NCBI GenBank assembly: GCA_051313645.2
Contig: JBNRSN020000007.1
Span: 255,006,001 to 255,070,000 of the forward strand
Length of the DNA: 64,000 nt
Reading direction: 5' to 3'
Source: Centroscyllium fabricii
Taxonomy: Eukaryota
The notes under the pieces: generated by a model
Databases searched by the model: none
Seen by the model: the letters and a program-made list of their open reading frames with translations, nothing else
What the model was told of the DNA's origin: nothing
Made by a program: the position numbers and the translations under genes
In this document: positions 22,796-55,687 of the stretch, one piece after another
Layout: each line of letters starts with the position of its first letter
Position numbering within the stretch: the stretch's first letter is position 1

Positions 22796-22973
22796 TAAAT
22801 TAACTGAGGTGGGTGCAGTACGTATGTGGGGAAGAGTGAACAAATTAATCTATATGTGTGTAGGGTTGGTGGGGATGGAGGGAACGAACTACAGGGAAAT
22901 GTAGTGTGTTTGGGTCAATGTTAGGGTTGCTTCAACCTCGTTAGCATCACTCCTCAATCCAGGGCAAGTAATA

Positions 22974-23807: not shown

Positions 23808-23855
23808 TACCTCACTGCCTTTAATTAACACAAAGGGGGACCACTATTGTTCCTG

Positions 23856-24221: not shown

Positions 24222-24454
24222 CACCAGAAATTTACATTTTTTGTCCAAGAACCAGTTCAACGGAAACAAAATGTGGCTAAAAAGTAGCTAACTTGCACTG
24301 TGATCAAACTTCAAAAATTATATAGGAAAACTGGAAAAGTAGTAAAGAAACTGCCAACTGGAGCCTATTTGAGGCTAAATTTTACTGCAATTACAATTTA
24401 ATTCCTTGCTTGGCAACAGATACTTCAAAAAAATACAGATGAGCCCATTTTTAC

Positions 24455-24525
24455 CGTTGCAAATTAGTTCCCTTAGCCTCTAATTCATCCCAAGTTTCCT
24501 TTTCATTTTTCCTGTGTTGCAGCAG
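24455..24525 (-). CDS. MTCL2: MTCL2/SOGA1 internal exon (71 nt), below ORF-track size
   Basis: TATTTTTCAG acceptor, LLQHRKNEKETWDELEAKGTNLQ-CG|GTAAAA. Supplies exactly the phase 0-to-2 shift needed to join 31197 to 22139. The GxNLQR end resembles MTCL1/SOGA1. Confidence 0.85.
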
Positions 24526-26051
24526 CTGAAAAATACAAAGAATGTGACTTGTAAACAATTATGTGGGAATTTGCAGGGTCTGCTGAATCCATTTTAATTT
24601 CCTCAAATATACGGACTGTGTCTGCAAATCACTCTAGCTTAACGTCCGAGAAAAACCACCTCCTCCCTGTGCTAGCTTGACAATAGCACCCTTCTTTGTA
24701 CCAACGTCACCAGGACACTGCAGGTCTTTGATCTTCTGCTTGATGTAGTTGCTGCGACAATTACATGCAGTAGAGGGTGGGGGGGTAAGAGTTCCCCCAT
24801 GCTATGTATTACTAAATTGTGAACCCATTTAGAAAGTGCACAGAGGAAATTTTCCACCGTGGTCTCATTATTTTAAAAAAAGTCCGGATTAAGAAGGAAA
24901 AAAGATGCAAATCATGGTACGAACTGAAAACACACCAAGCTTCTGCGGGAATTCAATTTATCCAAAATCATGTGACTTGAAATGCAATTCCTCTGTTAAT
25001 GATAAACAAGACAATGTCTGTTTTTTGCAAAAATTAACAAGCTACTAACAAAACTGCATTCTCAGAAATCTCAGTTCAAAAGAGAAAAACAGTCTCATTT
25101 TCTATTACAAGAAAAAATTCTCAAATGTGTTGTATCTAGCAGAACCACATTTACATTCTCGCCATCTACATTGTAATCTTGTGCGTCTTAAATTCAAAAT
25201 TTCCATTCTCCAAATCAACTTGCATTTACATAATACCTTTAATGTAGTAAAATGGGCATCACAATTTTGCTCCTTTTTCCACACAATTTCAACATATCCT
25301 ACAGATATGAGCAGATTTTTTCCTTTTTGCAGCACCTAGGTAAAGCTCAGTTCCCAGGCACAGTGAAGAGGAAAAAGAGGCAGGGGCCCATTATACTAGG
25401 TCTCTGCCCCCACTAATCTACGTTGGGATTCCCTTTGCATTTCCAGAGATATGACAAGTGAGTATGTGTCTAGAGTAGACATAGGCTCAGCATAATCATG
25501 GATACGAGGCGGGAGGGATATGCGCAGCCTCCCATCTGACTGTTGGGTGCCCCAAGAAGAAAGGCCGGCCCCAGAAGAAACAAGAAATTAGGGCAGGTCG
25601 ATTGAAAAATCAGACTCGGGTCATTTGATAGCTCAGAGTTTCTACCTTTGCCTTCATGACAATCTTTAGATTTCACGGCCTTCTAATTGCTACTTTCTGG
25701 CTGGATGGATCAGATTCTAATGGCCAGGGGCACAGCTGCATTCCTGCTTTTAGCCCCAACTCCACTGCAGGTCTGTTGGTAGTCTATCTAGCAAATATTT
25801 CCTGTTCAGAGCAGGAAAGTTGTTGCCCAGGCTGCCAGGTGGCACGCAAAGTATACCATCAGGCCTCACTGCTACACTACATAGGTCTACTGTACCATGT
25901 ACAGAAATCTGGGAAGGACAGTAGAATATGCCTAAGGAGGCTGATGTTTAGCAGGGATACTGCGACACCTATGCCATCTCTTTCAGGAAGATCTCCAGAC
26001 AACAACCAAATGACCGTGAGATTCATCTTGGCCCTTATTATTCAAAATAAT

Positions 26052-26784
26052 GGCCCAGAAATTCGGGTCACACCGCGCGAGTACGCGCTGGGTACTCATG
26101 CGTAGGCCCAACGAAAGTGCCGGTTTCGTGCGTGCACTGCGCATGCGCGGGAAACCGGAACTTCCGTTCCCCTGAAAGAAGGGGTTCAGAGGTGAAACGC
26201 GTGCGCGGGAGAGGCAGCGCGTGTGCATTGAACTTATGTTTTTTTTTTGCAGGTTTCTCCGAGAGGGTAAGTCTCCAGGAGTTACACATGTAAAAAGCAG
26301 GCGCAAGGCCTGCTTTTAACAAGGTAAGTGGTGAATTAATTAAAATTAAAGCATTTTTGCGACAGGTTTATTATTTTTAAATAGTTTAAAGGTAAGTTTA
26401 TTTTAGCCCCGTTAAAAAATGTAATCAATTTTTCAAAAATTTAAAATATTGTTTAATAGTTATTTTAAAAATGTGATTTAAAAAATGTATTTGAAGTTTT
26501 AGTTATGTTTTGGGGCTTATAGTATTTATAGGTTTGACAGCTCTTCCTGTCAAACTTATGAATGAAGCATTCTCTGCTCCCATTGGCTCTCCGTGGCCCA
26601 CGTGATCCCAGGGGACGCATCAAACTAACTGCGCCCCAGGACACGCAAGCACTGCGCGCCTGCAGTTGGAGGCGGCCCAGGATCGGAATACCACGTGGGC
26701 CCACAGCTCAACGGCCGGTGCGCAAGCGAAGTGTAAGTTGGAGGCTTGCACCCGTGGGAAGCCTCCGACCCAAATTTCTGGGCC
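26052..26784. mobile_element. PIF/Harbinger-type MITE
   Basis: TIRs GGCCCAGAAATTCGGGTC / GACCCAAATTTCTGGGCC with 3-bp AAT on both flanks. Sister copy at 32857-34105. Confidence 0.8.
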
Positions 26785-28091
26785 AATTATAAATAAATAT
26801 GCTGCACAATGTTCCAATTAAGTGCAATGCAATTAGTTCATCCATTATGCGGCGTGTGAATGCTGTCAGTTTGATAGAACACGGTGCTGCCCCTTTGTGA
26901 TCTGTTTCCGACATGTGAAATCTAACCCATCACTTGTAATTAATTCCTTGTGGAAGGGCAAGTGTGCTGCTTGGCTGCAGGATCTCGCCGAGTCTTTTGG
27001 GATTTGGGTGGCCCGAGACCACCTTGGGCTGTGCAATGTGAAAGCTCTGCATCTGAATCAGCTCCATCCGCTGCTGTGGTGGCTGAGTGGTTCCTCCTTG
27101 CATTTCCACCTCCTCCCACACCTGCTGTACCAGGCACTTCTAAGGAGGTGGCAATCAGTCTCACAAAGTGTGTCCTCCAGCAACCAAACTCACAGTGCCT
27201 GGACAGTAAACCTGCCTTTTCTTTAGCTAAAACACTCCATTCTTCAGTAAATTTGCTCAACCAGCATTTGGCAAGGCCTTCACAGTGCTACTTCAGCTAT
27301 TTAAGTGACACCTAATTGCAGTTAAATATTAGGACCATTGCCAAAACAAACTGCCCGGTGTGGTGCGACTCACAGATTAGCAGTTCTCATCTTATCCAAA
27401 CTGCCATCTCTCCACAAAATAGTGAGCATGGCGAACAGAGGTAGTTTTTAAAATGATGCTAAAATTGTGGAGCATGCTGAATAAGTTTATGGACAGACTT
27501 TATAAGCTAAGTGTTCTCCACACAGAGCTTCACACAATGGCAGTGCCTTTCAGAAGCAAGTGCATCCCACATAATTTTCGATCCATTAATTGTAATGGAC
27601 AGAAAATTGCACGACCCACACCAACTTTCACACTGATTTCGGCTATGTGCTCAGCGCTGGGAGCACTAATTTGTAAAGTATACACCCATAATAATTGTTA
27701 TAATGAATTAGAAACTGATTTGCTTCAAAAAAGATATTTTCTTGCAAGAAATGCAACTAAATCTACAAAGAATTGGCAGACTCAGAAATGTCGATTACTG
27801 GTCCATCACACCAGAAGAGCAGTGAATGCTCAATTAATTAGCTCTTGCTTGAGATGAAATTAAGATTATGAGGATAAATATATGCATAGTAGAGCAAATG
27901 ACATATGGAACACAACATAAATGAATTCTGTGGATACAGCTGGCTATGGTTGAATAACCAGAATTATGTCACATTAATATCCCAGCTATTTCACCTCGGG
28001 GGACATTTCACAAAGCTTTATTTTCTTGGCAGTCTCATCTCTCTCAGGAGAGTAAACAAATAAGGACAGGTCCGTGATACACTCTACATGG

Positions 28092-28732
28092 ATTCCAGTT
28101 CCGGCAGGAGCGGCCGCCACCCGGCGGCCGCACCTCTACTCCTCTGCGTGGAGTCAATTCGTTCTGGTCGACCGCCATTTGACGTCGGCGGCGCCGGGTG
28201 AGAGCTGGTGGGATGCGGGGCACAGTTCGGCCCCAGGCCTCAGGACGCTGCACCAGTTCGGCCTCGGTCCAGAGTTCGGACCTCCGGGGAGTCGGGATGG
28301 CCTTGGCTTGGTGTTCCGGGGAGCCTGTGTCGAGCGCCTGCAGGAGAGCTAGGCCCCAGGCCTTGGCCTGGAGTTCGGAGCTCAGGGGAGCTGGGACGGG
28401 CACTTGGAGAGGGCTAGGCCCCAGGACGCTGCGCCCGGAGTTCGGAGCTCCGTGGATTCGGGGAGCCGGCATGGTGTTGGACAGAGAGTGGCCACGGAAG
28501 AAACAGTGGCAGAGCGAGTTGACTGAGCGAAAGAGGACAATTTACCATCAGTTGAGTGGCCAGAGCAGGAACGGGACCCACGATGATGGCGCCGGAGAAT
28601 GGCTGACGTCTTGCGGGCTCGTTCGTGCCGGGCAGCTTAATTGTTGCGCGGTTGTTGCACGGTGCGTCGGGTAGCAGTAGGCTTTTCACTGTTTGAATTG
28701 TATTTGAATATGTGACAATAAATTGAACTTGA
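28092..28732 (+). mobile_element. GC-rich non-coding retroposon with a TGACAATAAA-(TTGAAC)n tail
   Basis: Flanked by ACATGG direct repeats (28086-28091, 28733-28738). Internal GAGTTCGGA and GGCCCCAGG repeats, LINE-type microsatellite tail. Confidence 0.6.
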
Positions 28733-29444
28733 ACATGGTGGTTGAAGAAATAAACTTGGGGGACTGAATGGCCTTTTATTCATTCCAATTTTAAAATGTT
28801 CCTCCAATAAATGTAATGCTGAATATACTCCATTTGCGACAATATAGGGGAAACCACCAATGTTTCTGTTTATACAATTAAAAACTAGGTGCTGGAGTAG
28901 GTCAGCACGATGGGCATTATTCCCCACAGAAGAGATGGATTTTACTTTCAGCCAACAGATTTCTTATTTCGGTAGTTTGATGCTGTGGAAAAGATGCACT
29001 TTGGCAAGTGCCTGGTGCTGGATTGTGACAAACTCTATTATGAAGTTGTAGGGCACAGCTTTGCACCCACAATTGCACAGCAGTTAGGCCGTGCAGCCGA
29101 GGAGCGGGGAAAAGGCATTCCGCCATGGGAGGCAAAACTTGGGAGTTCAGGGATGCTCCTGGCCAAAAACTTTTTTTCTTTATCATTGCCTCGTGAACAG
29201 CCCTGGCACAGGCATGGCAACTGGTCATCTGCCTTCCCCCTCAGCAAAGAAGAAATAAAGGAGATCCAAATAAAACACTAGATCTTTTTGAAAGAAGTTA
29301 GGGAGACATAAACAAAATTTAAAAATTGCAGAATTCTATGTAATTAAAAGCAGGTTAAAAAAGTGGGTTTCTTTGAATAGCGACAATAAAAAGCGCTGAG
29401 CATATCTGATATTACTGTCAATAATTTATCTCCATATAGTAATA

Positions 29445-30110
29445 CAGGTTGAGCACCGGTAATCCGGCACCCGATGGTCCGGCATGAATTGAAATTGGCG
29501 GTCTTCAGTTTGCGGAGCAGCCGCTCTGCGGCGCCACCATTTCCCGCTGTAAAGCATGTAAATTTATTTTTCAAAAAATTAAATTTTTGTTTTAAATATT
29601 TAATTAAATGCCATTTTAATTAATTTTAAATATGTGATTATTTTTATTTATTTGATGTCTAGGCGTATTTTCTGGGGTCTTCCAATTCATACTTGTGGGG
29701 TTTCCATACATACGGAATACCGATAAGAATGAATGGGGATTTCCTTCCCTCATTCATTAGGCCAACCCACGTGATCCCAGAGATGCTCGCGAACCGCCTG
29801 CACCCCGGGATATGTGGGCCTCTACCCGCCAGCACCCTGAGAGTCCCAGGACCGCGAATCTCCTTACCTCCTGGACCACCAGGTAGGCGGAAAATTTATT
29901 TGTGGATCGGTGGCATTTCCCCGCAGGAAGCCTCAGACCACAAATTCAGCCCCATCAATTATCTCTGCCATTCCTTCACTCTGAAGTACAAGGTAGCTCT
30001 GCTAATCAGTAAGTTTTCGATCCCTTATTCAACCTTCAGTGGTTCGGAATTTTCAAAAGGTCCGGCACCGGCCTGGTCCCGAGGGTGCTGGATTACCGGT
30101 GCTCAACCTG
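29445..30110. mobile_element. Tc1/mariner MITE enclosing a Harbinger-like fragment
   Basis: TIRs CAGGTTGAGCACCGGTAATCC / GGATTACCGGTGCTCAACCTG with TA flanks. The interior resembles the 3' half of the 26052 family. Confidence 0.75.
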
Positions 30111-30377
30111 TACTGGAACAAATAGGATAGGTGGCTGAATACCTAGACTGCAAGAATCCTTGGGCCGTGATCCTGCTGGAGTTCGTGGGGCCAGCGAAGG
30201 GGCACCTAATGTATATGGGGCAGGAGGGCACATCACCATTACTCATCTGCTCCATGCAGCCAGGAAATCGGACACCTGTCCTCCATGGAGGTCCTGGCCA
30301 ATTGCCCTGTGGCCACCTGTGTAAGGGGGGGTGATCAAGATTTAAAATAAAAAATCTCCTTTCATTGAAAGATCCTG

Positions 30378-30830
30378 GCTGCTGGCTCAGTGGGTAGCAC
30401 TCTTGCCTCTAATCAGAAGGATGTGGGTTCAAGTCCCACTCCAGAGACTTGAACACAAAAGCCAGGCCGACACTCCAGTGCAGTGTTGAGTGAGTGCTGC
30501 ACTGTTGGAGGTGCCGTCTTTCGGATGAGACGTTAAACTGAGGCCCTGTCTACTCTCTCAGGTGGACGTAAAAGATCCCAAGGCACTATTTCGAAGAAGA
30601 GCAGGGGAGTTATCCCCAGTGTCCTGACCAATATTTATCCCTCAATCAACATAACAAAAGCAGATTATCCGGTCATTATCACATTGCGGTTTGTGGGAGC
30701 TTGTTGTGTGCAAATTGGCTGCCTCGCTCCCCACATTACAACAGTGACTGCTTCACTGGGCTTGGCTGTAAAGCACTTTGGGACATCCGGTGGTCGTGAA
30801 ATGCGCTATATAAATCCACATGCAAGTCTT
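30378..30830 (+). mobile_element. SacSINE1-like Deu-SINE
   Basis: tRNA-like head (TGGCTCAGTGGG…GGTTCAAGTCCC), Deu core GGAGGTGCCGTCTTTCGGATGAGACGTTAAAC…GTGGACGTAAAAGATCCC, tail GCGCTATATAAAT. Confidence 0.85.
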
Positions 30831-31196
30831 TCTTTAAATACCCTACATCCACCCTGCCGTTCTGCGGTGGGTGCATCTTATCGCACTCTGTATACCGGCC
30901 ACCAGCCCCACACTGGGTCTCGAGTGAGCCAGAGAAATGGAACTGCTGGTGTCGGGAATTACTGTCCCTTGCTCTGCCCTCCCCCACAGCAACATTTGTC
31001 TTTTAAGGGGTGGGTAAAGGTTCTTGCTAAGCACACGTGCCAAAAAATCCCAGGAACATGGTACAATCGGGTACCTTCTGGTTTCTGGCGAGTTCTGCGA
31101 TGAACCCCCTTATATCTCTTTGGGGCCATAAGATTTGCACAGGATTAGAAGCACCTTAAAAACGTAGGGCACGTCAAGAAGCAGTGCTGCACGTAC

Positions 31197-31448
31197 CTGA
31201 TTGATGTTGTGTTGCATTTCCTTCAGACGCTGCTCGCTGCGGCTCTGCTCATCGTTAAATCGGTCCAGTAACTCTAACTTCTCTTGACTCCAGTTCTTTT
31301 CACTGATTTGAAGCTGCTGTGTTAGATCCATAACTGCGCTGTAGGACTCTGCCAGGAGCTGCTGATGCTCTTCCCTCTCCCACTTCAAGGCGGTCTTGAG
31401 ATCACCGGGAGCTTTCTCAGAGGTCAGTTTGCCAGCCCTGCCTTCCAG
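31197..31448 (-). CDS. MTCL2: MTCL2/SOGA1 exon (252 nt, SOGA1/2-like coiled coil)
   Basis: ACAACAG|CTG…CAG|GTACGT; EREEHQQLLAESYSAVMDLTQQLQISEKNWSQEKLELL. Confidence 0.93.
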
Positions 31449-31540
31449 CTGTTGTGGGACAGTTACACATTCAGCATCATCGACTGAAATTCCAGCAATT
31501 TTCACAACAGTCTGCTAGCCCCTGATTTTGAGGCTTAATA

Positions 31541-31879
31541 CAGGTACACAATCCTTTACCCGCGACTCCGAAAACAGAAAACCTCCAAAAAACAAAATTT
31601 CAAATGACCCGAGTTGCGCGCGAAAAATGATCCGACGCGACCCACGCAGGTCAGAGGCGTCAGTATCTGACCGCTGATCTCAGATATTTTTGCGAATTTG
31701 CGCCGTTATTTTTTGGAAAAATGCCTAAAAGAGCAGCAGACTGACCCACTTTTGTGACTATTTACCAGATTCGCTGCAGAAAAACGTATGTTTATGCGAC
31801 CATTCCGAAAACCAAAATTATCCAAAATCCAAGAACCGTCTGGTCCCGAGGTTTTCGGATAAAGGATTGTGCATACCTG
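31541..31879. mobile_element. Tc1/mariner (Tigger-like) MITE
   Basis: TIRs CAGGTACACAATCCTTTA / TAAAGGATTGTGCATACCTG (2-bp indel) with TA flanks. Confidence 0.75.
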
Positions 31880-32856
31880 TAATACAATGACATTTGAAAA
31901 GCTACGTCTATGCAATTTGATGGAAAATAGTTCATCTCCAGCTCGAGATCCAGTGCTTCTTTACCTGGATTTCTTGCATTTCTGGAAAATGTGTAATAAA
32001 AACACATTCTTCACTTTTTACATTTCTGAAATGACTCCAACCCAACCTTTTTTTAAACATTTAACTGCAGCTCCGATGAAAATATACTTCAAGTTGTCTA
32101 CTTCAAAAATCTTCTAGAATGTTGTCGATTTCCACAAGTCCTATTTGCATATGCTAGATAAGGAACGGGGGTGGGTTAATTCTGAGATGCCATGCTCCCA
32201 GCCAGGAAGCTGCAACATAGTGGAGATAGCGCTATGACAATGTAGCTCCGATTCTCTGTCCTAGGCTCCTCAAAGGGAATACTGTAAATTGCTTTCACAA
32301 TGATGCAGTCAAATATCACTTGGTTGTCAAGGTAGCTGAAACTGAGAAATCCTAGAATATTTTACCCTCTGATAATTGTGCGCACTGCGGATAATGGGGC
32401 CAGATTTTGCTGTCAAAGTAACAGTGAGGCTAATGTCGCTTAACGTTATTTATGTGCAAATGGTACAGGAATTTCAGGCGAAGGCAGATGCGCGGTTAAA
32501 CGTGGATATCCAAATGTAGCTGTCCGAGATGCGCCACTCCGCCATTAGCTTCGCAAAAACAACATCTTGCTGTCGTGCTTCACCATTGAAAAGCATTGAA
32601 TGGCGTGAAGTTGCTATATTGGTGCGGTATATACGAACTAAATGCGCCACAGAAAGTTAAGCCTTGTCCATTCCAGTCTAAGGGATTAGGGATGGGCAAT
32701 AAATGCTGGCCTTACCAGCGACGCTCACATCCCAGGAATGAATAAAAAAATACCTCTCTGGCACTAAAAATTAACTATTGTATGTGCGAGTCTCATTCCT
32801 TAAGGTTTTAATTGTTGGTGGAGATTTTAAAAAGTCAAATTTAAAATATAAACATT

Positions 32857-34105
32857 GGCCCAGAAATTCCAGTCGCCCCGGGTGAGTACACGCTGGGTGC
32901 TCACCCGTAGGCCCATCCGAAGTGCTGGTTTCGTGCATGTGCGCGAAACCGGCACTTCCGACCCCTGACAGAAGGGGTCAGAACACGTACGCATCACCGC
33001 ATGTGCGCAATGCACTTGCGATTTTTTTTTTTTTTAATTTTTTTTTAAACAGGTTCTATATCTGGGTAAGTAAGGAAAAAGTTACGTCTCCTATTTTCAA
33101 GTGCAAAGACCCCTTTTCAGAAGGCAAGTGGTGAATTAATTCAATGAAAAACATTTTTTTCCACAGGTTTTATTTTTAAATACAGGTTGTGCACCGAAAA
33201 TCCGTGTCCCGAATAGCCGGCAGCTTCAGTCTGCCGGCACAAATTGCCCCGACTGCACTGTGCATGCGCAAAATGGCAGCCGCCATCGTGGCTTCAGCGC
33301 ATGCGCAGATCATTCAAAACAGCTGCGGGTGTTTTGAATGATATGCGCATGCGTCACCGGACGGTTAGCGCATGCGCAGATAATTCAATACGGCCGCCCG
33401 TTATTTTCTCGACAGCTGAGCCCCGTGACTGAGGCAGACAGTCACTAGGCAACAGCTGTCAGCCTGAGTCCCGCTCGGCGGCAGCAGCAACCCCAAAGGC
33501 GATGGAGAGGGACGGCGGACCCGGGCCCGATCTGTGCATGCGCGCGCCAGCCAATCGCAATGTTGCGCGCGGCCATTTTGAATGGTGCGCATGCGCAGTG
33601 TCCAAACTCGTTCTCCCGGTTTTTTCCATTTCCCGGCACGGGCCTGGTCCCGCCCGTGGCGGATTAACGGTGCACAACCTGTACTTTAAAGAAAGGTAAG
33701 TTTATTTTTAGCCACGTTAAAAACTTTATTTTTTTCAAAATTTTTAATGTTTGTTTAATAGCTAATTTATGTAATTGATAGTTATTTAAAAAAATGTGAT
33801 TTAAAAAAATATATTTGAAGATTTACTGAGGTTTTGGGGCTTGTGTTATTCATAAGTTTGACAGGTCTTCCTGTCAAACTTATGAATGGAGCATTCTGCG
33901 CATTGGCTCTCCATGGCCCACGTGATCCCGCGCGATATCTCACACTAACTGTGCCGCTCAGATCCGGGAGCGTGGCGCGCCGGCACTTCAGGAAGGCCCC
34001 GCATCAGGATTCCATGTGGGGGCACAGCTCAACGGCCGGCGCGCTAGATAAGTGTCGGTTGGAGGCTTGCAATCGCGGGAAGCCTCCAACCCGAATTTCT
34101 GGGCC
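32857..34105. mobile_element. PIF/Harbinger-type MITE (26052 family)
   Basis: TIRs GGCCCAGAAATTC / GAATTTCTGGGCC. Colinear with 26052-26784 except for the insert at 33183-33681. Confidence 0.8.
33183..33681. mobile_element. Tc1/mariner MITE (inverted near-copy of 53862-54392)
   Basis: TIRs CAGGTTGTGCACCG / CGGTGCACAACCTG with TA flanks. Confidence 0.85.
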
Positions 34106-35489
34106 AATGTTTTTGTAAACTTTTCCTTTGTCTCTTTTTTCCTCTCTCTTAATGCAATCTTTCTTTCCCTCTCTTTATTTCTCTTCCTGTACCTGATTTG
34201 ACTGAATTCACTCACTCATTCCAACTTACACTTCCTTCTCAGTCCTTGCGCTTTTAATTTCACAATCCTTCAATCTCATTGGTTGTGGTGATACACAGTT
34301 GCTTGCCCTGATCACTCAGGTCCCAGATGTCCGTTTCCAGTTATCAACTTTCACTTTCAGCAACTTGCCACGCAAAAAATTTAAAAAACGAAATATGCAA
34401 GGGCAAGTCTAACTAACGGCAAATGCCATTAAGATGCCCTGCTACAGCAAATTATGGTCCATTGTGGAGTAGATTTTTTGTATTAGCGCTCGCAGCAGAG
34501 CTTTGCTGGATGGGCATAGCTATTGGAAAAAGAGGGGATAAGGCACTATATAAATGCAAGGTTTTTTTCTATTTTTATTTCTACCCAATACTAGCTGAAA
34601 ATTACAAAATAGTAATGCATTTCTGTAAAAATGAACACAATCTGTCTCTAGGGGTTCATTTCTCACAAGAAGGTTCACCGGACAGTACACAGCGTACAAA
34701 TTTCCATCTGAATCATATTCCCATGGTTGATACATGCAGCTGTGTCTATATGTCAGCCGAATGAAGGAAGCTGTGGTCTGCTGAGCTGAACACTTGTAAT
34801 ACTATGGTTTAGTTAAATCTGTGTGCCAATTTGTAAATCAGTACAGCTATTAGTAGGAAAGTGAAGGGAGGGGGGGGGGGGGTGGGGGAGGAGGTGATTG
34901 CATGAACAGTGGTGCCAAAAATTCCAGCATTCCTCCTAAAGTCAACGATTTGGATAGATATGCAAGTGTTTTGCAATTTTAGATTTAAACTCACATCCTG
35001 AACATTATTGATAAATGTTATAAATGCTGCACTCCACAAATGTCAGCATCGTCTGTAATATTAAACTGACACTATTTACTTTATCCCATCGTCCTTTGGT
35101 AATTTGATAAAATCAAATTGCTACATAGAAGGTTGCAGCAAAATTGTGACTGTCTGAGAAACATGGGGCCAGATTTTGCTCTCACACTAATGAGGCTAAT
35201 GGCGTTCGCTGTTATTTATGCGTAAATGGTACAACAACTTCAGGCAAGGAGCAGACCCCGTGGTTAAATGTCAATATTCAAACGTTGCTGTCCCAGTGGC
35301 ACTGCTCCGTCGTTAGCTTCACGAAAATGGCATCTCGCCGCCTGCCTCACCGTTGAATTGCAAAGAATGGCGGGAAGTTGCTGCATTTGCGTGGTAGATA
35401 CAAACTAAACTTGCCACAGAAAGTTAGCATTTCAAGCCTAAGGACCCTTTATAAGACATGATAAGTGTTAATTACAGCCAAACCTTGGC

Positions 35490-35758
35490 CTCTAGCCAAG
35501 CTGTTCCAGTACAGCAACAATGTTGGCATCTACCTGACAATGTGGAAAACTGACCAGGTATGTATGTCCTGGCCAGAAAAGGCAGGACAAATCCAATCTG
35601 GCCAATTACTGCCCCATCAGTCTACTCTCAATCATCAGCAAAGTGATGGAAGGTGTCATCGACAGTGCTATCAAGCGACACGTAATCACCAGTAACCTGC
35701 TCACTGATGCCCAGTTTGGGTTCCGCCAAGACGACTTGACCCCCGACCTCATTACAGC
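35490..35758 (+). mobile_element. Degraded RT fragment of a second CR1-clade LINE family
   Basis: NYCPISLLSIISKVMEGVIDS…QFGFRQ. A possible 3' end of the same family lies at 48600-49075. Confidence 0.65.
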
Positions 35759-35759
35759 G

Positions 35760-37773
35760 AACGCCAAAGGACAACGGGTGTTAAAAAAACAAGCCTGAAG
35801 GCTCTGTCTTAATGCAAGGAGTATCCGTAATAAGGGGGATGAATTAACTGCACAAATAGATGTTAACGGATATGATGTGATTGGGATTACAGAGACGCGG
35901 CTCCAGAATGATCAGGGCTGGGAACTGAACATCCAGGGATATTCAACATTCAGGACAGATAGAAAAAAAGGAAAAGGGGGTGGGGTAGCATTGCTGGTTA
36001 AAAAGGAGATTAATGCAATAGCTAGGAAGGACATTAGCTTGGAGGATGTGGAATCCATATGGGTGGAGTTGCAAAACACCAAAGGACAGAAAACGTTAGT
36101 GGGAGTTGTGTACAGACCTCCAAACAGTAGTAGGGAGGTGGGGGAGGGTATGAAACAGGAAATAAGGGGTGCGTGCAATAAAGGCACAGCAGTTATCATG
36201 GGTGACTTTAATATGCATATAGATTGGGCTACTCAAACTGGAACCAACACAGTAGAGGAAGATTTCCTGGAGTGCCTAAGGGATGGTTTCCTAGACCAAT
36301 ATGTTGAGGAACCAACTGGAGGAGAGGCCATCCTGGACTGGGTATTGTGTAATGAGGGAGGACTAATTAGCAATCTTGTGGTGCGAGGCCCCTTGGGGAA
36401 GAGTATGGTGGAGTTCTACATTAGGATGGAGAAGGAAACAGTTAATTCAGAGACTATGGTCCAAAACTTAAATAAGGGCAACTTTGAAGGTATGAGGCGT
36501 GAATTGGCTAGGTTAAATTGGCAACCGATATTTAAGGGGTTATCAGTGGATGGGCAATGGCAGACATTTAGAGATCGCATGGAGGAACTGCAACAATTGT
36601 ACATCCCTGTCTGGCGTAAAAATAAAAAAAGGGAAGGTGTCTCAACCATGGCTAACAAGGGAAATCAGGGATAGTATTAAAGCCAAGGAAGTGGCATACA
36701 AATTGGCCAGATGTAGCAGCAAACCCGGGGACTGGGAGAAATTTAAAACTCAGCAGAGGAGGACAAAGGGTTTGATTAAGGCAGGGAAAATAGAATATGA
36801 AAGGAAGCTTGCAGAGAACATTAAAACGGACTGCAAAAGCTTCTATAGATATGTAAAGAGAAAGATGTTAGTAAAAACAAACGTAGGTCCCCTGCAGTCG
36901 GAAGCAGGGGAAGTCATAATGGGGAACAAAGAAATGGCAGATCAATTGAACAAGTACTTTGGTTCGGTATTTACTAATGAGGACACAAACAACCTTCCGG
37001 ACATAAAAGGGGTCAGAGGGTCTAGTAAAAAGGATGAGCTGAGGGAGATCCTATTTAATCGGGAAAATGTGTTGGGGAAATTGTTGGGACTGAAGGCTGA
37101 TAAATCCCCAGGGCCTGATGGTCCGCATCCCAGAGTACCTAAGGAGGTGGCCTTGGAAATAGTGGATGCATTGACGATCATTTTCCAGCATTCCATGGAC
37201 TCTGGATCAGTTCTGATGGAGTGGAGGGTGGCTAACGTAACCCCACTTTTTAAAAAAGGAGGGAGGGAGAAAACAGGGAATTACAGACTGGTCAGCCTGA
37301 CATCGGTAGTGGGTAAAACGATGGAATCAATTATTAAGGATGTCATAGCAGACCATTTGGAAAGTGGTGACATGATAGGTCCAAGTCAGCATGGATTTGT
37401 GAAAGGGAAATCATGCTTGACAAATCTTCTGGAATTTTTTGAGGATGTTTCCAATGGAGTAGACAAGGGAGAACCAGTGGATGTGGTGTACTTGGACTTT
37501 CAGAAGGCTTTCGACAAGGTCCCACACAAGAGATTGGTGTGCAAAGTTAAAGCACATGGGATTGGGGGCAATGTGTTGACGTGGATTGAGAACTGGTTGG
37601 CACACAGGAAACAAAGAGTAGGAGTAAATGGGTACTTTTCAGAATGGCAGGCAGTGACCAGCGGGGTACCGCAAGGTTTGGTGCTGGGGCCCCAGCTGTT
37701 TACATTATATATTAATGATTTGGACGAAGGGATTAAATGTTCTATTTCCAAATTTGTGGATGACACTAAATTG
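35760..37773 (+). mobile_element. CR1 LINE ORF2 (AP endonuclease plus RT), frameshifted and 3'-truncated
   Basis: IGITET, GGGVAL, VYRPP, MGDFN, ILDWVL (endonuclease); [31 protein letters not shown] (RT). Similarity stops right after DDTKL. Confidence 0.95.
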
Positions 37774-38209
37774 GCACTTAATCGGACAAGAACCTACCAT
37801 ACAGTTGTGTTTGACTCACCTTTACATGAAACCCGGCTTTGACAAGTTTCACCTGCACCAACTCAGATCCATCAAATGTGTAAATACGTATTTGGACCAT
37901 GTTACTAATTAGTAGGTGCTTAAATGTGGAAAGTCAAACAATGTTGTGACAATGCTAATGAAAGCACAGCTCTGCTTAGCAGGAGATGACGCTTGGACGG
38001 GTTATGGCACACTTCCCAAGTGCATTCTGGGCACTCACTTCAATGAAGTTGTAATTTTCGTTTTTCTTTAAGTTAAGCTCGATTCACTTGTTAGCATCCA
38101 TAACAACTCATTTGATTTTAAAGGCCGCCTTTAGAAATAGTTGCGGCAACTATCAATAGTATATATACTTGATATTCAAAATTATGTTCAGAAATATTGA
38201 GGTGGGGGG

Positions 38210-38890
38210 GTGGGGAGGAAATTGGGTCATGCCCCCTTTGGGGCACTAACATTGCCAGGGCGCTAGCACGCCCGCATCAGAAATTCACTGGTAGCACCCA
38301 AAGAGGGAGGCGGGGCACTACTGGAAGTGCCCCGTGTCCCTCTTGGGGGCGCTGCAAGTGAATAGCACGTCGTGCCGCGGTACTGCAGGCCTTCCTCCCC
38401 TTATTAAAGGGGATGGACCTTGCGCAGCGCAGCCCAGTAGGACCACCAGGGATCGGATTGCCGGCAAAATAGCCCGTCAATTAAGAGAAGTGCCGGGCTC
38501 ACGGAGTGCAGCCGGCATCCCGGGGGGGGGGAGGAGAGCTGCACTGAAGGCCGGGACAGCAACAGGTGCTGGCAGGCAGCCAGCAGCAAAAAATGGCCGC
38601 ACGGTACCTCCCCTTTAATTTGTGTCGCCCCGGCCGCAGGTAGCCCTCCCCCCGCCCCGGTCAGACATAATGCCCGGTGATAAGTCAGGGGGTGCTACCG
38701 AAGATCGCAGCCGGGGTGTGACGCACGGCGATGAAGTCATTGCCGGAGGCGCTGCGCCATGGGGCGCTAACTGTTATCGGCGTCACTGAATTTCGCGGGA
38801 AGCTTTGGCGGCACCACGCCCAGGCGCTAGTTGCTTGACGCCCCGTTAGTGCCCTCTTAGGGAGGCACAAATCAACTGAATTTTTCCACC
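38210..38890. mobile_element. GC-rich non-autonomous DNA element
   Basis: Ends GGTGGGGAGGAAATT / AATTTTTCCACC. GC-rich interior in an AT-rich intron. Confidence 0.5.
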
Positions 38891-39183
38891 ATGAACCCTT
38901 TGAATGAGCTCTTTCTCAGAGTGAAACAAGGACCATGTTATATTTCTGTGTTCAACCTTGCTCATTTCCTGTTATCATAGTAAAGCTTCGAATGGGCCAA
39001 GCAAGAGACTGACGTGCTTAAATAACAGCAGATAGAAGGGCAAATGTACTTTAATGCCCCATCCATAGCAAAAAAAAAATGTACACCAGCCTTGGGACTG
39101 TTGGCATTGAATGCAATAAGAGTGACCGTGGATTACTGCCAACAGCATAACTAACTCAAATGTTGTTCTCGACTTCTGCTTAC

Positions 39184-39351
39184 CTGTGCAATATGACTTT
39201 TGAGCTCCACCTTTTCTATCTCCCAGGCTGATTTGGCATTTGCCAGCTGTAGCTGAAGCTCATTTGTTCGCCTCCTTTCCTCTTTTAACTCTGTGCAAAG
39301 GTCCTTTAAAATCATTTTAATGTCTCCCACAACTCTACTGTATTCTTTTGA
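39184..39351 (-). CDS. MTCL2: MTCL2/SOGA1 exon (168 nt)
   Basis: TTTTCCAG|TCA…CAG|GTAAGC; SKEYSRVVGDIKMILKDLCTELKEERR…WEIEKVELKSHIAQ. Confidence 0.92.
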
Positions 39352-39492
39352 CTGGAAAATATAAAACAAGCTTAAAATATTATTTCTGTTAAAAATCAAA
39401 ATAAACATCTTTGCTATTATAATGCACATAATTTTGACAAAGCTGACAATCAATTCTGTGCCCTACATACACCAACTGACTGAATAAAAACA

Positions 39493-39890
39493 GAAATAGA
39501 AACATAGAAACTAGGAGCAGGAGTAGGCTATTCGGCCCTTCGAGCCTGCTCCACCATTCAATGAGATCATGGCTGATCATCCAAACCCAGTACCCCGCCC
39601 CTGCCCTCTCCCCATATCCCTATCGAGCCTCCATCAACACATATCCCACCCTATCCCCGTAACCCCACCTATTTAATCCCCCTAACACTAAGGGTCAATT
39701 TATCATGGCCAATCAACCTAACCCCGCACATCTTTGGACTGTGGGAGGAAACCGGAGCACCCAGAGGAAACCCACGCAGACACGGGGAGAATGTGCAAAC
39801 TCCACACAGATAGTACCAGAGGCTGGATTTGAACCCGGGTCTCCAGTGCTGTGAGACAACAGTGCTATCCACTGTGCCACCGTGCCGCCC
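39493..39890 (-). mobile_element. HE1-like SINE, full length
   Basis: Head, V-domain and CR1-like tail as in the other copies. Confidence 0.9.
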
Positions 39891-40349
39891 AGTGATATAG
39901 CTACATTTCAGTTTAACAAATGTTAACAGATTGGTTGCCTTTATCAAGCTTAATTAATGGTGCTAAGATTGCTGTAAATTGTCCTGTTTCACAGATACTC
40001 TACGTTACAATAACTTAATAAGCAACAGTCAGCATGGATTCATGAGTGGCTCCTTCCTGGTTCATTTGAAAATCTTTCAGATAAAATAGTGATAGTCCCT
40101 AGTTTATTTGGATTTCTGGAAAACTATTGACAATGTTCCACATACAAGACTTCCCAATTTGCCTAAAAATAGGAATCCAGGGTAGAACAGGGGACAGGGT
40201 AAAGAAGTCGGCTAAGAAAAATAGAAAAAAACTTCCGACAAGTCTATCGCTATCGAAACTGAATTTAACAGCAGAAATGTCAAGAGAATGGTCATAGAAT
40301 CCAAATGAAAATAGTAATGTAAAAATGGCTACTGTGTACTTGTGAAAGA

Positions 40350-40772
40350 TCAACTGAACTTGTACTCTCTGGAGTTCAGAAGAATGAGGGGGGATCTCAT
40401 AGAACCGTTTAAAATACTGACCGGTTTAGACAGGTTAGATGCAGGCAGAATGTTCCCAATGTTGGGGAAGTCCAGAACCAGGGGGCACAGGCTAAGGATA
40501 AGGGGTAAGCCAGTTAGGACCGAGATGAGGAGAAACTTCTTCACCCAGAGAGTGGTGAACCTGTGGAATTCTCTACCACAGAAAGTTGTTGAGGCCAGTT
40601 CACTAAATATATTCAAAAGGGAGTTAGATGTAATACTTACAACTAGGGGGATCAGGGGATATGGCGAGAAGGCAGGAACGGGGTACTGATGTAGCATGTT
40701 CAGCCATGAACGTATTGAATGGCGGTGCAGGCTCGAAGGGCCGAATGGTCTACTCCTGCACCTATTTTCTAT
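40350..40772 (+). mobile_element. CR1 3' fragment (same subfamily as 60779-62470)
   Basis: LYSLEFRRMRGD…GTGY* and the distinctive UTR TGATGTAGCATGTTCAGCCATGAACG. Confidence 0.93.
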
Positions 40773-41117
40773 GCAACATCAGACTGGGCGAATGCACTGA
40801 CTCATCCCAGGAAATCAGGTGACTAGATCCCGCAGTTTCTAATCCGTATAAGTAATCTGGATTCCAAAATTAAATGCAATTTTGTCAAATTTGCTGACAA
40901 CATTAAAAGAGAAAGAGGAAGCAGAGAAAGACATGCACAACGATTCAGACTGATCAAATTAAATTTATCATCCCACCAGATCAGTAATCCACCACACAGA
41001 TGATGCAATGATCCAGTGCTCTGTAGCTAAGAATGTTAGAGCTCCAGTGTGCCCCTGCAGGACTTCCTTCAACACAGCTTTAACGCTCTTAAAAATAAAC
41101 CTATTATTACTTTAGAG

Positions 41118-41362
41118 GGGATTTGATGAAGAACTTTTTCACCCGCAGGGTGGTTGGAATCTGGAACTCACTGCCTGAAAGGGTGGTAGAGGCAGGAACA
41201 CTCAACATTCAAGAAGCATTTAGATGAGCACTTGAAATGCCATAGCATACAAGGCTACGGACCAAATGCAGGAAAATGGGATTAGAATAGACAGGGTTTG
41301 ATGGCCGGCGCGGACGCGATGTGCCGAAGGGCCTCTTTCTGTGCTGTATAACTCTACGACTA
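41118..41362 (+). mobile_element. CR1 3' end (another subfamily)
   Basis: AACTTTTTCACCCGCAGGGTGGTTGGAATCTGGAACTCACTGCCTG…GCCGAAGGGCCT. Inverse copy at 49525-49955. Confidence 0.8.
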
Positions 41363-41581
41363 TTACAATGATAGACTATGCTTTGCTATACTGTATAAAA
41401 ATTGGATTGTTACTTAATTCACAAAACCCATGGGTCAAACCCCCTCGAGTAGAGACTATAATTGCAATGAACCCTGTAGTTTTAATAGAAAGAAGCTCTA
41501 GTATTTAATTTTGGAAAGTGTGGCACAGATAGTGACCATCCCTTTGCATTGCTGTAATTGGTTATTTAAACATTGGTGTAC

Positions 41582-41746
41582 CTGCTTTGGGCGTGATGAA
41601 AGAACGGATTTCTCCACTGGAAGAGTCAAAGCCTCCTCTAAGGTTTTCGGAGATTGATCATCTGTTGTCATGGTCTTATTGTCCACTTGGTGAGGGGTCA
41701 GCTCCTCTTCTTCAATCAGCAAATATAAATCTTTCACACTGTTAAC
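41582..41746 (-). CDS. MTCL2: MTCL2/SOGA1 exon (165 nt)
   Basis: TTGGCAG|GTT…CAG|GTACAC; VNSVKDLYLLIEEEE…DNK matches recalled SOGA1 VNSMKELYLLMEEEE. Confidence 0.88.
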
Positions 41747-42392
41747 CTGCCAAGTGCATAGGAGCACAGGGATTGTTTGACTGAACGGCATCAACGGACA
41801 TGAACCATATAGCATAGTGCATTGTGACACACTGACAACAGTAGTTAATCTTTTGTTATGGTACACAAATATGTTAACAATCGATTTTAAACGAATGAAG
41901 GACACAGCTTAAAAAAGGGGCCACTCTCGGACTTTATGCTCCTCGCTGGCTAGACTCCCTTGCCAAAAGTGCACATCAGAAATTTCAATGCACATAATTA
42001 TTCACCCATTCTGGTCAGAAAATTGTGCACACAGGACTTTCAGTGTGCTCTCAGTGAGCAAGACTCCCCACTGGGAGCATGATTGGAAAAGTATCACAGA
42101 AGCACCTTGGTTTTTGCTTGTTCAGTTTGCTATATATAGACTATGAGCCCAATAGACACATTCTATACATTGTTCCTCTAATTTACTCTAAGATTTACAG
42201 TATTTAGTATACACATATCCTTACTAATTGGGTGAATTGATCCTAAGTTATATTAATATAAAATTACATGTGTGTTTATTGCCTGTATTTTATAGGTTTA
42301 ACATGCACTGTCGTAATGGTATGAGACTTTACAAAAATATAATCTCTGGAAGAAGAGCAGATTATTCGTTTTTTAAATTTCAAATACAGCAC

Positions 42393-42623
42393 CTCTAGTA
42401 AATCATCCCCATCATTATCCATCTTCTTGCCACATTTCCAGTGTTTCAGGAACCATTTCAGCTTCATGTAGAGCAGGAAGAGGTTTTGTTTGAATTGATC
42501 AGCTTCTTTCACAAACAGGTTTTTTTCCTGGCTCCAGAATTTCTGCTCAAGTCTGGTCTGCAAATTCAGGCTCTGTAGCTCAAAATCTCTTCGTACAAGT
42601 GCCTTTTGTTGCTCCTCTTTAAG
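42393..42623 (-). CDS. MTCL2: MTCL2/SOGA1 exon (231 nt)
   Basis: TTCCATAG|CTT…GAG|GTGCTG; LKEEQQKALVRRDFELQSLNLQTRLEQKFWSQEKN…KLKWFLKHW…GDDLLE. Confidence 0.92.
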
Positions 42624-44349
42624 CTATGGAAAGCAATTAAAGAACCAGTGAAAGCATAAAGACTTCAACAGTGAACCAGACCGTGTACGTCTCCTATCAG
42701 CAACTCTTATGTTTGTATCATGGTTCATTGTGCACTTACCCGCAGCATACAAAACAGCTGTTAAAGCTGATGTGCCCCATTAGTTTCATCAAATTCCCTT
42801 TAAGTAGCTCAAAAAAACAAAGATTAAAAAAAAACACAAGCCTTTCCAACTCCTCCTTTTGATCCCCAGCTACGGTGTTGAATTTGTCAGCTTCGAGTTG
42901 TGAATGTGCCATGTGCCCCAAGGCTCTATCAATGGCTCCATTTAACTGGCGAATCGGAAAGTCGGCAAGACTGGCCCAAGGTGACTCATCCTCTGATTTC
43001 CCCAGCTTCTCCCTGAAGACCTGACTGCACAAAACCTACACACCGTGCAGCTGCATAAATATGGTAATTTTTCTATGATTTTCTTTCCCACTCTCCTAAC
43101 TCCGTGTTCAATGGCTGCTACCAGCTCTGTGGTACCTGAACCAAATGTCCATTCTTCTTAGGTGATCTTCAACTATGGGTGACTGACATTCAAGCGGGGT
43201 CGCTGGATAACAACTGCGAGTGGTATCCCTAGTCCAGGCTTGCTTTGTTCAACTACAGCACCCTTACTGCTATCTTAACAGAGATTTGTTAATTCAGCAG
43301 AGGCCAGATATTGAACCTTCCTGTTCTGTACCATACCAGTCAGCGTAAAATTGTTTCTATCTCTTTTGTATGCAGTAGAATCATAGAAAGATACAGCACA
43401 GAAGGAGGCCTTTTGGCCCATTGTGCCTGTGCCGGCTCTCTGAATGAGCGATCCAATTAGCCTCACACCCCTGCCATTTTCCCCCTTCAAATGTTTATCC
43501 AATTCTCTTTATGAAAAGGGGTTAGAAAAGCTCAGATTCTTTAGCCTTAGAAGAAAGGCTAATGTGAGGGGATCTTATAAGAGGTACACAAGATACTAAG
43601 TGGAATAGAAATGACTAGGCACTGTTTTAAAGCATGATGGCAGGAAACAGGTAAATAGGTTCAAACTGGTAGACTGATTTCTAATTAATATGAGCTAAAT
43701 GGCATTACTTATCCTTATTTGTATCTGTGATCTTTGTTTTTAAATAGTGTTGGATGGTCCAAACTACAATTGCTGCATTCCAGATCCTACAGGAACTACA
43801 GTCCATCAATAAAAAAGTCAAGATTTCTTGTATTGAAGTCCAATTCACCATGCAAAAAGTTTCATATAAACAGAATTGAATTCAAGCAGAAGTCCCCTGA
43901 ATCGTCCAATATTTTGTTCCAAACCCTCGAGGGTTCTCAGCATTCCTCAGTTGACCATCTGTGTCTCTGTTCCATTTGTTGGAAAATATTGTTGCTGATG
44001 ACAGGGTTCAGTAATGCTCCTTCCCCTCACTATCTAGCAAAAGGAACCAAGTTGCTTGGAACTGGCAGTTTCCTTGCCTTCATCAAATTTTAAACTGCCT
44101 CTATAGTGACAAGGTTCTAGTGACACCCTAGTATTAAGTGAGCCGTTTCGCTCTGACACTGGAGGCTAGGACAGCATTTCCTCCTACCAGCATTCTCTCA
44201 CAGGAGGAAGAGAAAGAGACAGAGACAGGCAGATAGAGACCAGAGACAGTGGCAACTGATATTGGTAGCCAGTAGTGTAAGGGAATGACGTAGAGGCAGA
44301 AATAATTGCGTATCCTGAATACAAAATGGGAGACAAATGCACTTTACCT

Positions 44350-44636
44350 GCGTCGGGGCCATCGTGGCCGGGCGCCAGGAGCAGAGAGGCCTGAGCGCCG
44401 GTAGCATCGGGGCTGGGAGCATATGGGCCGTTGTTGCTGGGCGCCAGGAGCATCGGGGCCTGAGCATCGGGGCCTGCATGGTCTGACCGTCATGGCCGGA
44501 GCGTTATGGACCAGACTGGGACTTACATGAAAGAACATTTTAAGATCTGCATTGTTTCTTGGGATATTGCATGTTTGCATTTCATTGTATTGTGCATGTT
44601 CACTTTACAATGACAATAAATTGAATTGAATTGAAT
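44350..44636 (+). mobile_element. 5'-truncated GC-rich retroposon with a TGACAATAAA(TTGAA)3 tail
   Basis: Internal GAGCATCGGGGCC repeats. Tail architecture as in 28092-28732. Confidence 0.55.
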
Positions 44637-45093
44637 ATGATTGTAGGTCTTACCAGTGCATTTACTTAACCCACAGCTGACAACAGCCATTTAACATGGA
44701 CAATCAAAGTGGTTGATATGTATGTTTTTAATGTAGAACTGGCCAACAAAATTCCCTGCAGAATGTGGTTTTGGACTGGGAAATGAGGAAAACAGTTCAA
44801 TTTGTGACTGTGCACATCCACAAGTGAATACCTGTGAAAATAGCACTATGTTGAATAGATGTTACAATGATTAACAACTGTGTGATGATAATTTCTCTGA
44901 ACATGACCGTTCTCCTTGGTTGCATGTACATACGAGAAAATTAATTCAATGAATTACTAAGCAACTCTAGAATTTGAACAGTTGCAATTTTCAAATGGTA
45001 ACATTTTAGTTCCTTCAGCACTTTTTCTTGAATTTCACTTTAAAGCTCATCATTTCCATTGTGTGAAATTCATAATTGTTCTTTTGAACTGAC

Positions 45094-45219
45094 CTGTGAC
45101 ATTTTCTGTTGAAATCTCCCCGCATCTTCATTCCGAAGCTCCCTTTCCTGAACAAGCTGCTCCTGCAGTCCTCGGATAGTCTCCTTGGCTTCAGATAAAT
45201 CAAGCTGGAGTTCCTTGAC
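45094..45219 (-). CDS. MTCL2: MTCL2/SOGA1 exon (126 nt)
   Basis: TTTGAGCAG|GTC…CAG|GTCAGT; VKELQLDLSEAKETIRGLQEQLVQERELRNEDAGRFQQKMSQ (frame not shown in the ORF track). Confidence 0.92.
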
Positions 45220-46244
45220 CTGCTCAAACAAAGAATCATAGAACTGAGTTACAGTAGGGCTAAGAGGAAATTTTTAGAATGGCTTTCCCTTCTCCACCCC
45301 CCCCCCCACTTTTCTCACACTGCCACATAACCTCCCTCTGCAAAGAGGACACGGGAGTGTCGGCTACAAGAATCGCCATAGCCGCTGCAACGAGGTTCTA
45401 GGGTTATACAAATGAGTGATGATGCATGTGCTGAGACAAATCTTCCCACTTAATGACCAGCTGAGAACTAATGACAGCTCCCCCAGCAGAGATAGAGATG
45501 AGAGCTGGAATGAGAACCTGTGAACATCCGGTGCAATACATGGAGGTAAAGAGAACAAAATACAGCCAAACCATTGCCTCCAATATCATGGAAATAGAAT
45601 TTGGATCCTTTTGAACGATGCAAGTCTCTCCACAAAGGATAGAAGCTAAAATCAGCAAGATTATCATTCAAACGCCGAGGGGACGACTTGCTGAGCATGC
45701 ACTGAGAACCTCATCCACCAGCCGCGCACATCAAACATCAATGAGCAGCGCACATGATTTTTCAATCTGAGCTGCCAGATAGTACTTCCCTCTTTATATG
45801 CGTATATCGAGTTCTTCTCTCCATTATTTTAACGGAGACATTTACCCACTTATATTAAACGTGTCAGCGCCTCTGTTGAAATAGAGGGGAGTAATTTGAA
45901 CAACTGCATTAAGTGTTTGTACATGAACAACAAAGGCAGTGAATTCTATCCTTTTAATGTTTCCATAATAAACCCGAATACACACCATGGATCCCTGCAA
46001 TAATGCGAGTTTCCCCCGATATTTTAAACTCTTTTACAAGTGTGCTTGGACACATTTTTTTTCTCCAGAAATTAGACCATTTCTCTAAAATCATTGCTCT
46101 AGTTTCAACAAATTCAGAAATATTCAAAACAATGGAATTATGCATTATTTTATTTAAAAATTTGATGGAAAGGTTTTAGATAGGAAAATTTAAAATTAAT
46201 TTTACCGTGCAAAACAGAATGAAATCTCCATGCTGCCCCTTGGC

Positions 46245-55496: not shown

Positions 55497-55585
55497 CTGC
55501 ATGCATGGGCAAGTTAATGAAAACAAAACAAAGGATAGGGAAGGAACAAAGAAACAAAAACTGGGTATTGTAAACATTGAAAAAA

Positions 55586-55687
55586 CTACAAGACAAAGAA
55601 AAGTATGAAAAGGAAAAACATCTTTATTACAGTGGCATATGAGAGTGTTGTAAACAAAATTAAAAAGACAATGAGCAAAATTATGGG
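55586..55687 (-). CDS. MTCL2: Alternative terminal coding segment encoding a hydrophobic membrane anchor (short MTCL2 isoform)
   Basis: Strong T/C tract plus AATCAG acceptor (55688-55689). Phase-0 translation PIILLIVFLILFTTLSYATVIKMFFLFILFFVL*, in frame with the donor at 59346. Closely resembles the recalled SOGA3/MTCL3 C-terminus. Confidence 0.75.
   Translation of the reverse strand, partial: PIILLIVFLILFTTLSYATVIKMFFLFILFFVL

Follow-up and report, generated by a model that had tools for sequence, protein, structure and literature searches.

A frame of 33 hydrophobic codons plus TAG at positions 55687-55586 of the minus strand of the window, the 64-kb stretch of the 7.2 Gb genome of the shark Centroscyllium fabricii analysed here, is judged from sequence comparison to be a real and ancient alternative C-terminus of MTCL2. 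The donor at 59346 of the shark gene is followed by two acceptors that would join it in frame and lie 191 nt from each other. The distal one gives the long form, and a protein ending in the tail is probably made from this gene as well. The tail is known as the normal end of MTCL3 and is apparently undescribed for MTCL1 and MTCL2.

The MTCL2 locus and its two acceptors

The big coiled-coil exon at 60632-59346 (minus strand) carries the SOGA domain PF11365, ends in the phase-0 donor common to both forms and is 97% identical to MTCL2 of the shark Pristiophorus japonicus. In a midpoint-rooted tree of this exon with 38 rows hand-picked from the retrieved proteins, the window gene fell inside an 18-row MTCL2 clade (support 100/100), separate from the MTCL1 and MTCL3 rows, and the identification as MTCL2 made in the earlier note is thereby supported. 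The exons of Pristiophorus MTCL2 (P0001, 1762 aa) were mapped in order by tblastn from beyond the right end of the window down to 18345. The next coding exon of the long form lies at 55496-55344 (minus), with a tandem CAGCAG acceptor at 55496/55493 and a donor after 55344, and is followed on the same strand by exons at about 45237-45076, 42623-42378, 41749-41573, 39354-39181, 31484-31194, 24534-24454, 22147-20675 and 18488-18345. These downstream exons (18345..45237, minus), with the PF14818 domain at 31188-31331 (minus), belong to long MTCL2 and are missing from the tail form. At the tandem acceptor (window 55497-55493) a single residue separates the members of named shark isoform pairs, and P0003 has no Gln at the join.

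The tail frame translates as PIILLIVFLILFTTLSYATVIKMFFLFILFFVL before its TAG, and two teleost MTCL2 proteins, P0377 and P0384, end in the orthologous tail. It consists of 21 residues, Lys22 and 11 further hydrophobic residues, in agreement with the two hydrophobic stretches around one lysine described in the earlier note, and its acceptor lies 191 nt before the usual acceptor at 55496, as also described. The proposed in-frame join holds, for the coiled-coil exon ends on a whole Lys codon at 59346 before a GTAAGA donor. The acceptor had been called very strong; it has a long pyrimidine tract and an AG (55689-55688) that is the only one within 89 nt upstream, but the tract stops about 10 nt before that AG, because the upstream AG used by MTCL1 and MTCL3, which yields MFQ before PIILL, here reads CAA (55699-55697). 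A branch-like TAAC is found at 55744-55741 in the same acceptor region (55777-55688, minus). The frame had also been said to hold no ATG; one is present at Met23, although not at the start of the frame. Between the tail stop and the usual acceptor, the spacer at 55585-55497 (minus) would be the 3′ UTR of the tail form and holds the acceptor tract of the long form, with a TGCATG at 55505-55500. With its likeness to a pyrimidine tract, the tail coding exon escapes annotation. The TAG that stops the tail supplies a further AG (55586), in frame as an MTCL2 acceptor and followed by a stop after 23 codons.

The same tail in MTCL1 and MTCL3

When the genome was searched in six frames for the 33-mer, all three candidates proved to be matches (the window, C1000 and C1), one per paralog. 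The two paralog matches (E 0.003 and 0.005 in 7.2 Gb) each lie in the intron after the big exon. Upstream of the C1000 match this exon shows 83% identity with coelacanth MTCL1, against 46% with coelacanth MTCL2, and upstream of the C1 match 95-98% identity with shark and ray MTCL3. The MTCL2 tail is identical to that of MTCL1 in 24/33 residues and to that of MTCL3 in 23/33, and the MTCL1 and MTCL3 tails agree in 32/33 residues at 76/99 bases. The resemblance to the end of SOGA3 (MTCL3) stated in the earlier note is thus a match of homologous sequence in the same intron and phase with the stop at the same place, and the ancestral origin suggested for the tail is upheld by its presence in that intron in all three paralogs. 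MTCL1 is laid out like MTCL2: the tail and its stop come first, and the coding exon that follows lies 192 nt past the first codon of the tail. The MTCL1 tail is preceded by two AGs at a spacing of 9 nt, of which MTCL3 has only the first and MTCL2 only the second. Pfam has no model for the tail.

MTCL3 has the same tail after the same exon, and the tail is the annotated end of 88/123 retrieved MTCL3 proteins. MTCL3 ends in it by default, and the flanking sequence there shows no conservation with MTCL2, whereas the annotated form of MTCL2, which is also the form in shark RNA, is long, and its tail acceptor is shifted by 9 nt, without MFQ. A PF14818 exon resembling those of long MTCL1 and MTCL2 lies on the same strand 72 kb downstream of the MTCL3 tail (G000:C1:431064685-431064822), and from this resemblance it is taken to be the KIAA0408-like far half of the MTCL3 gene. 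This arrangement matches the human locus, where KIAA0408 and MTCL3 are described, in the available part of the preprint, as forming a complex locus, and its read-through RNA is named there as a candidate for decay (10.1101/2025.08.01.668123). In MTCL1, use of the tail-stop AG as an acceptor leaves the frame open into the next exon, and in shark, ray and chimaera MTCL3 models (P0165, P0170, P0172, P0173 and P0378) this AG serves as acceptor and the tail is skipped; in the MTCL3 gene of this genome it is located near 431137350 (L003, G000:C1).

Constraint on the tail and its flanks

Mismatches in the tail at codon positions 1/2/3 were 9/1/6 for MTCL2-MTCL1, 12/1/18 for MTCL2-MTCL3 and 5/0/18 for MTCL1-MTCL3, with a deficit of changes at position 2 (p 0.014 and 6e-5), and the synonymous excess vanishes in shifted frames. 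Where MTCL2 differs from MTCL1, one hydrophobic residue replaces another or Ser and Thr are exchanged, and the frame, its stop and a usable AG have been preserved. The dN/dS of 0.50 between MTCL2 and MTCL1 is alone not significant (p 0.18), partly because silent sites are unusually well kept: third-position changes number 4/24 in the tail against 128/226 in the big exon (p 2e-4), so that the silent sites saturated in the neighbouring exon are not saturated in the tail. Similarity to MTCL1 extends over the 90 nt before the tail acceptor (67/90 nt, z 9.4, 0/200 shuffles) and the 89 nt after the tail stop (64/89 nt, z 9.0, 0/200 shuffles); upstream of the 90 nt no further conservation between MTCL1 and MTCL2 was found, and the tail flanks of MTCL2 and MTCL3 do not match. 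Conserved silent sites and flanks are as expected for regulated splicing, and the pattern suggests two overlapping constraints, one on the peptide and, confined to genes with an optional tail, one on an RNA element.

Spliced transcripts and protein models with the tail

P0377 (933 aa, 3273-nt contig) and P0384 (950 aa, 3204-nt contig) are unnamed Logan teleost MTCL2 proteins, obtained as proteins of less than 969 aa with the big exon among the best 120 of 1067 matches. Both begin at Met and cross the junctions after P0001 residues 335, 393 and 411, where the introns measure tens of kb in this shark, and both end in the tail; short MTCL2 therefore exists as a spliced RNA in teleosts, and the short isoform postulated in the earlier note is to this extent borne out by two unnamed contigs. 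Their tail of 34 aa follows directly after the Lys, where teleost genomic read-through frames continue with Val (GT). The two proteins agree in 855/925 aligned residues and nest in teleost MTCL2 in the tree. T14, F24 and I28 are common to the shark MTCL2 tail and the tails of P0377 and P0384, against MTCL1 and MTCL3, and the teleost pair also lacks MFQ. The jack gene prediction P0381 has the same tail and runs on; as gene predictions, P0381, P0386 and P0357 were rejected as evidence of expression. For teleost MTCL1, five Logan proteins contain the join, with the whole tail in P0345, P0346 and P0470 and part of it in P0356 and P0485, and teleost genomic DNA (L019) has GT at this join.

The tail motif was present in 3/330 MTCL2-type, 25/117 MTCL1-type and 88/123 MTCL3-type proteins among 589, 19 being without exon match; these counts are not frequencies, most negatives being long isoforms or single-exon frames unable to show the tail. 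None of the 164 long MTCL1 and MTCL2 proteins retrieved has the tail. Of the named MTCL2 models of sharks and rays, none with the tail was found in the 164 proteins or among the best 120 of 1067 matches, where shark MTCL2 tail models, if annotated, would rank at the top of the protein search; an annotated teleost MTCL2 tail isoform would score near the end of the best 120 of 1067 or might exceed 969 aa, so that one may exist beyond that list. No tetrapod MTCL2 tail was seen among the 589 proteins, a metagenome scan with the rodent MTCL2 exon gave two short fish-like contigs with no tail match, and a search of the ESM Atlas gave only scores <0.8.

The 17 tail-bearing bird MTCL1 models were rejected as evidence of expression, their joins looking forced, and were counted as genomic retention. 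In human, orang-utan (P0471, P0472) and bat (P0336) MTCL1 models the donor joins a 13-residue decayed start of the tail and then runs on, which suggests that the tail was lost in placental MTCL1 and that the acceptor can outlast the tail, a coding exon having possibly turned into an unproductive splice. Mammalian MTCL1 read-through frames (P0314, P0319, P0325, P0329, P0340 and kin) have a recurrent hydrophobic stretch of about 30 aa past the donor and then a stop, which could be a replacement tail made by intron retention or merely a conserved intron start.

These models bear on an alternative in which the near acceptor is used in the shark, the transcript splices on at 55344 and is removed by nonsense-mediated decay, so that the choice tunes the MTCL2 level and yields little tail protein. 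Under the 50-55 nt rule for nonsense-mediated decay the position of the tail stop suits such a fate, for it lies 242 nt before the junction if splicing continues at 55344, as the earlier note had calculated. Conservation between MTCL1 and MTCL2 at the nucleotide level, covering silent sites and flanks, the mammalian models P0471, P0472 and P0336 that still join the donor to the decayed tail start and into unrelated-looking sequence, and the description of the human MTCL3-KIAA0408 read-through as a decay candidate (10.1101/2025.08.01.668123, in the part available) point the same way. No poly(A) site of the tail form was found, and the AATAAA at 54412 is at chance level. A poison exon would, however, have no need of 33 hydrophobic codons with their second positions kept, and the teleost MTCL2 tail keeps its length, its hydropathy and the end FFL-ILFFVL in a form assembled as whole coding contigs, which leaves this alternative unlikely beside a translated tail.

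RNA from shark relatives

Four contig runs from relatives of the shark, presumed to be RNA, were aligned to 55170-59700, X6 being without cover of the gene. The usual junction 59346-55496 was present in X1, X5 and X8, and the tail junction 59346-55687 was not found among 15 of 67 joints listed for the four runs. Assembled contigs drop rare forms. X1 has intron cover throughout, and one contig at the depth of the intron passes the tail acceptor without a break; an X1 contig of depth 14 has His in place of Tyr17 of the tail. In X5 the depth beside the donor is that of the usual-junction contig alone. An X5 contig of depth 20.7 at about 55580-55691 (by bin arithmetic) was rejected as MTCL2 tail RNA, there being nothing extra on the donor side; over this stretch MTCL1 of the present genome is alike in 96/112 nt and MTCL3 in 74/112, and the contig is likely to be MTCL1.

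The missing junction would also be seen if the tail, functional in the ancestor and still so in MTCL3 and teleost MTCL2, were no longer used in the shark MTCL2 copy and survived through slow evolution and overlap with the pyrimidine-rich region of the usual acceptor. The 9/33 residues at which MTCL2 differs from MTCL1, against a single one between MTCL1 and MTCL3, the loss of the ancestral AG and the Tyr17His change in a relative would fit such disuse. Against it stand the intact frame, stop and usable AG, the conservative nature of the swaps, three of the differences being common to the expressed teleost MTCL2 tail, and the silent sites between MTCL1 and MTCL2, saturated in the neighbouring exon and not in the tail; with contigs prone to drop rare forms, a disused shark tail is considered improbable. 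A T-rich intron stretch that translates as hydrophobic residues by accident, as T-rich DNA readily giving Phe, Leu, Ile and Val might, is already refuted and is given next to no credence, since only 1/386 YAG sites on both strands of the window (those with >=14/20 pyrimidines), the tail acceptor itself, opens a comparable frame (25-45 aa, stop-ended, mean hydropathy >=1.8), the paralog matches at E 0.003 and 0.005 each lie in the equivalent intron, and the codon pattern is frame-specific.

The predicted short form

With the translated tail as the preferred reading, the near acceptor would be chosen in some cells and translation would stop after the tail, giving a short MTCL2 of 842 + 33, about 875 aa and about 97 kDa. 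The loss of some 920 residues given in the earlier note agrees with 1762 minus 842 in P0001. The short form would keep the N-terminal coiled coils and lose the microtubule-binding region. A stable transcript would need a 3′ end before the next junction, and its likeliest escape from decay would be to terminate within the intron that follows.

The MTCL family is described as cytosolic and without an N-terminal signal, and a GPI-anchor reading of the tail was set aside. Kyte-Doolittle means over 19 residues are 1.8-2.56, in line with a hydrophobic C-terminal segment of >=17-20 aa, and AlphaFold2 (three-row alignment, no membrane) gave one helix over tail residues 2-32 at pLDDT 89. At 33 aa the tail exceeds what one pass usually takes and falls short of two, and the helix fits a single pass or a hairpin alike. 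Insertion of the tail into ER-Golgi membranes is predicted, which would leave the coiled coil on the cytosolic side, and the membrane-fixed coiled-coil partner might dock or titrate long MTCL crosslinkers on ER or Golgi membranes; this docking role and a neural regulation of short MTCL2 are weaker guesses.

Tentatively, a single ancestral MTCL gene may already have switched between a long microtubule crosslinker and a short membrane-inserted form. Following the genome duplications of vertebrates, MTCL3 would have fixed the short form, its far half being left as KIAA0408, while non-mammalian MTCL1 and MTCL2 would have kept a neuron-regulated switch and the tail of placental MTCL1 would have decayed with its acceptor kept. 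On this view the integral membrane receptors so far missing would be the short forms, which would pair through the shared coiled coils with long MTCL1 and MTCL2 and keep bundles of microtubules attached to Golgi or ER.

Relation to known systems

The short form would share its N-terminal coiled coils with long MTCL2 (SOGA1) and MTCL1. Long MTCL2 is associated with the Golgi via N-terminal coiled coils, CLASPs and giantin; in the mouse Golgi, CLASP2 and further MTCL2 molecules are bound by the N-terminal and central coiled coils, and microtubules are bound only through a KR-rich region at the C-terminus (10.1101/2021.09.07.459224, in the part available). Unlike the predicted short form, long MTCL2 is described there as a crosslinker in the cytosol whose microtubule-binding region lies at the C-terminus. 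According to the same part of that preprint the Golgi attachment of MTCL1 and MTCL2 is complex and unresolved, MTCL2 is counted as the single paralog of MTCL1, and an older model of a membrane-spanning SOGA takes an internal signal and cleavage as its basis and does not involve this tail. The word 'transmembrane' occurs 0 times in 10.1101/2021.09.07.459224 and 0 times in 10.1101/2024.09.12.612747, both MTCL2 preprints. No description of the tail for MTCL1 or MTCL2 was found in the full-text literature covered, which leaves out most subscription papers, and the available parts of PMC10443533, PMC12202048 and 10.64898/2025.12.19.695350 contain nothing on it. One Mtcl3 event after PTBP2 depletion is given in the accessible part of a preprint on cryptic last exons (10.64898/2026.01.30.702498).

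By analogy, the type of switch is one already known from CUX1/CASP and SLMAP. CUX1/CASP is one locus with a common N-terminal part from which splicing yields either a golgin that spans the Golgi membrane once or a soluble long protein, and the choice is neuron-regulated in C. elegans (PMC11789633, in the part available). The long product there is a homeodomain factor, and MTCL2 is not filed as a golgin; the comparison concerns how the loci work and claims no kinship of sequence. In SLMAP, alternative splicing provides tail anchors, and how hydrophobic these are decides between targeting to the ER and to mitochondria (PMC2712456, in the part available). SLMAP, however, picks between two tails, whereas in MTCL2 a tail of 33 aa, with no residues after it, stands against 920 further residues. 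With the MTCL family treated as soluble, a tail isoform in MTCL1 and MTCL2 would tie both to the little-studied MTCL3, and it would explain MTCL3 and KIAA0408 as two halves of one ancestral gene.

Motifs and repeats in the introns

RBFOX binds TGCATG, and PTBP binds CU-rich tracts. The 3849-nt MTCL2 intron holds 8 TGCATG, presumably RBFOX-type motifs, a number reached by 2/300 dinucleotide shuffles in a post hoc test. Three of them lie near the tail acceptor (55829, 55791 and 55757, within 55752-55829, minus), the copy at 55757 aligning with one in MTCL1, and a second cluster of three (59108-59179, minus) lies 167-238 nt after the shared donor and is not present in the MTCL1 intron. The MTCL1 intron has 2 against 2.0 expected, no excess, with one at the aligned place, and MTCL3 has none. 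Regulation of the acceptor choice by tissue through RBFOX-type and pyrimidine-tract proteins is a weaker suggestion from these motifs.

The AATAAA at 54412-54417 (minus), proposed in the earlier note as the poly(A) signal of the tail form, is present and adjoins a repeat copy (53860-54397). That proposal did not stand: at 0.66 AATAAA per kb the chance probability over the distance from the stop to 54412 is 0.54. An AATAAA at similar distance in MTCL1 (1161 nt) and MTCL2 (1168 nt) was dismissed as coincidence, and the MTCL1 copy sits in sequence resembling a dispersed repeat.

A dispersed repeat family occupies 53082-53553, 53860-54412, 57160-57550, 58621-59069, 22969-23090 and 33178-33683 of the window, with internal GCGCATGCGC palindromes and subunits of 64-69 nt. 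Cover of more than 10,000 in run X5 shows it to be plentiful in the RNA or DNA sampled there. LINE-like endonuclease and reverse transcriptase fragments, which we take to be CR1-like, lie in the introns on the strand opposite to the gene at 3595-4647, 35799-37842, 40318-40689 and 60642-62385. The intron after exon 55344 also contains inverted repeats at 47292-48370, with arms of 134 and 93 nt at 96-98%, and another at 49171-49360 with arms of 65 nt at 95%.
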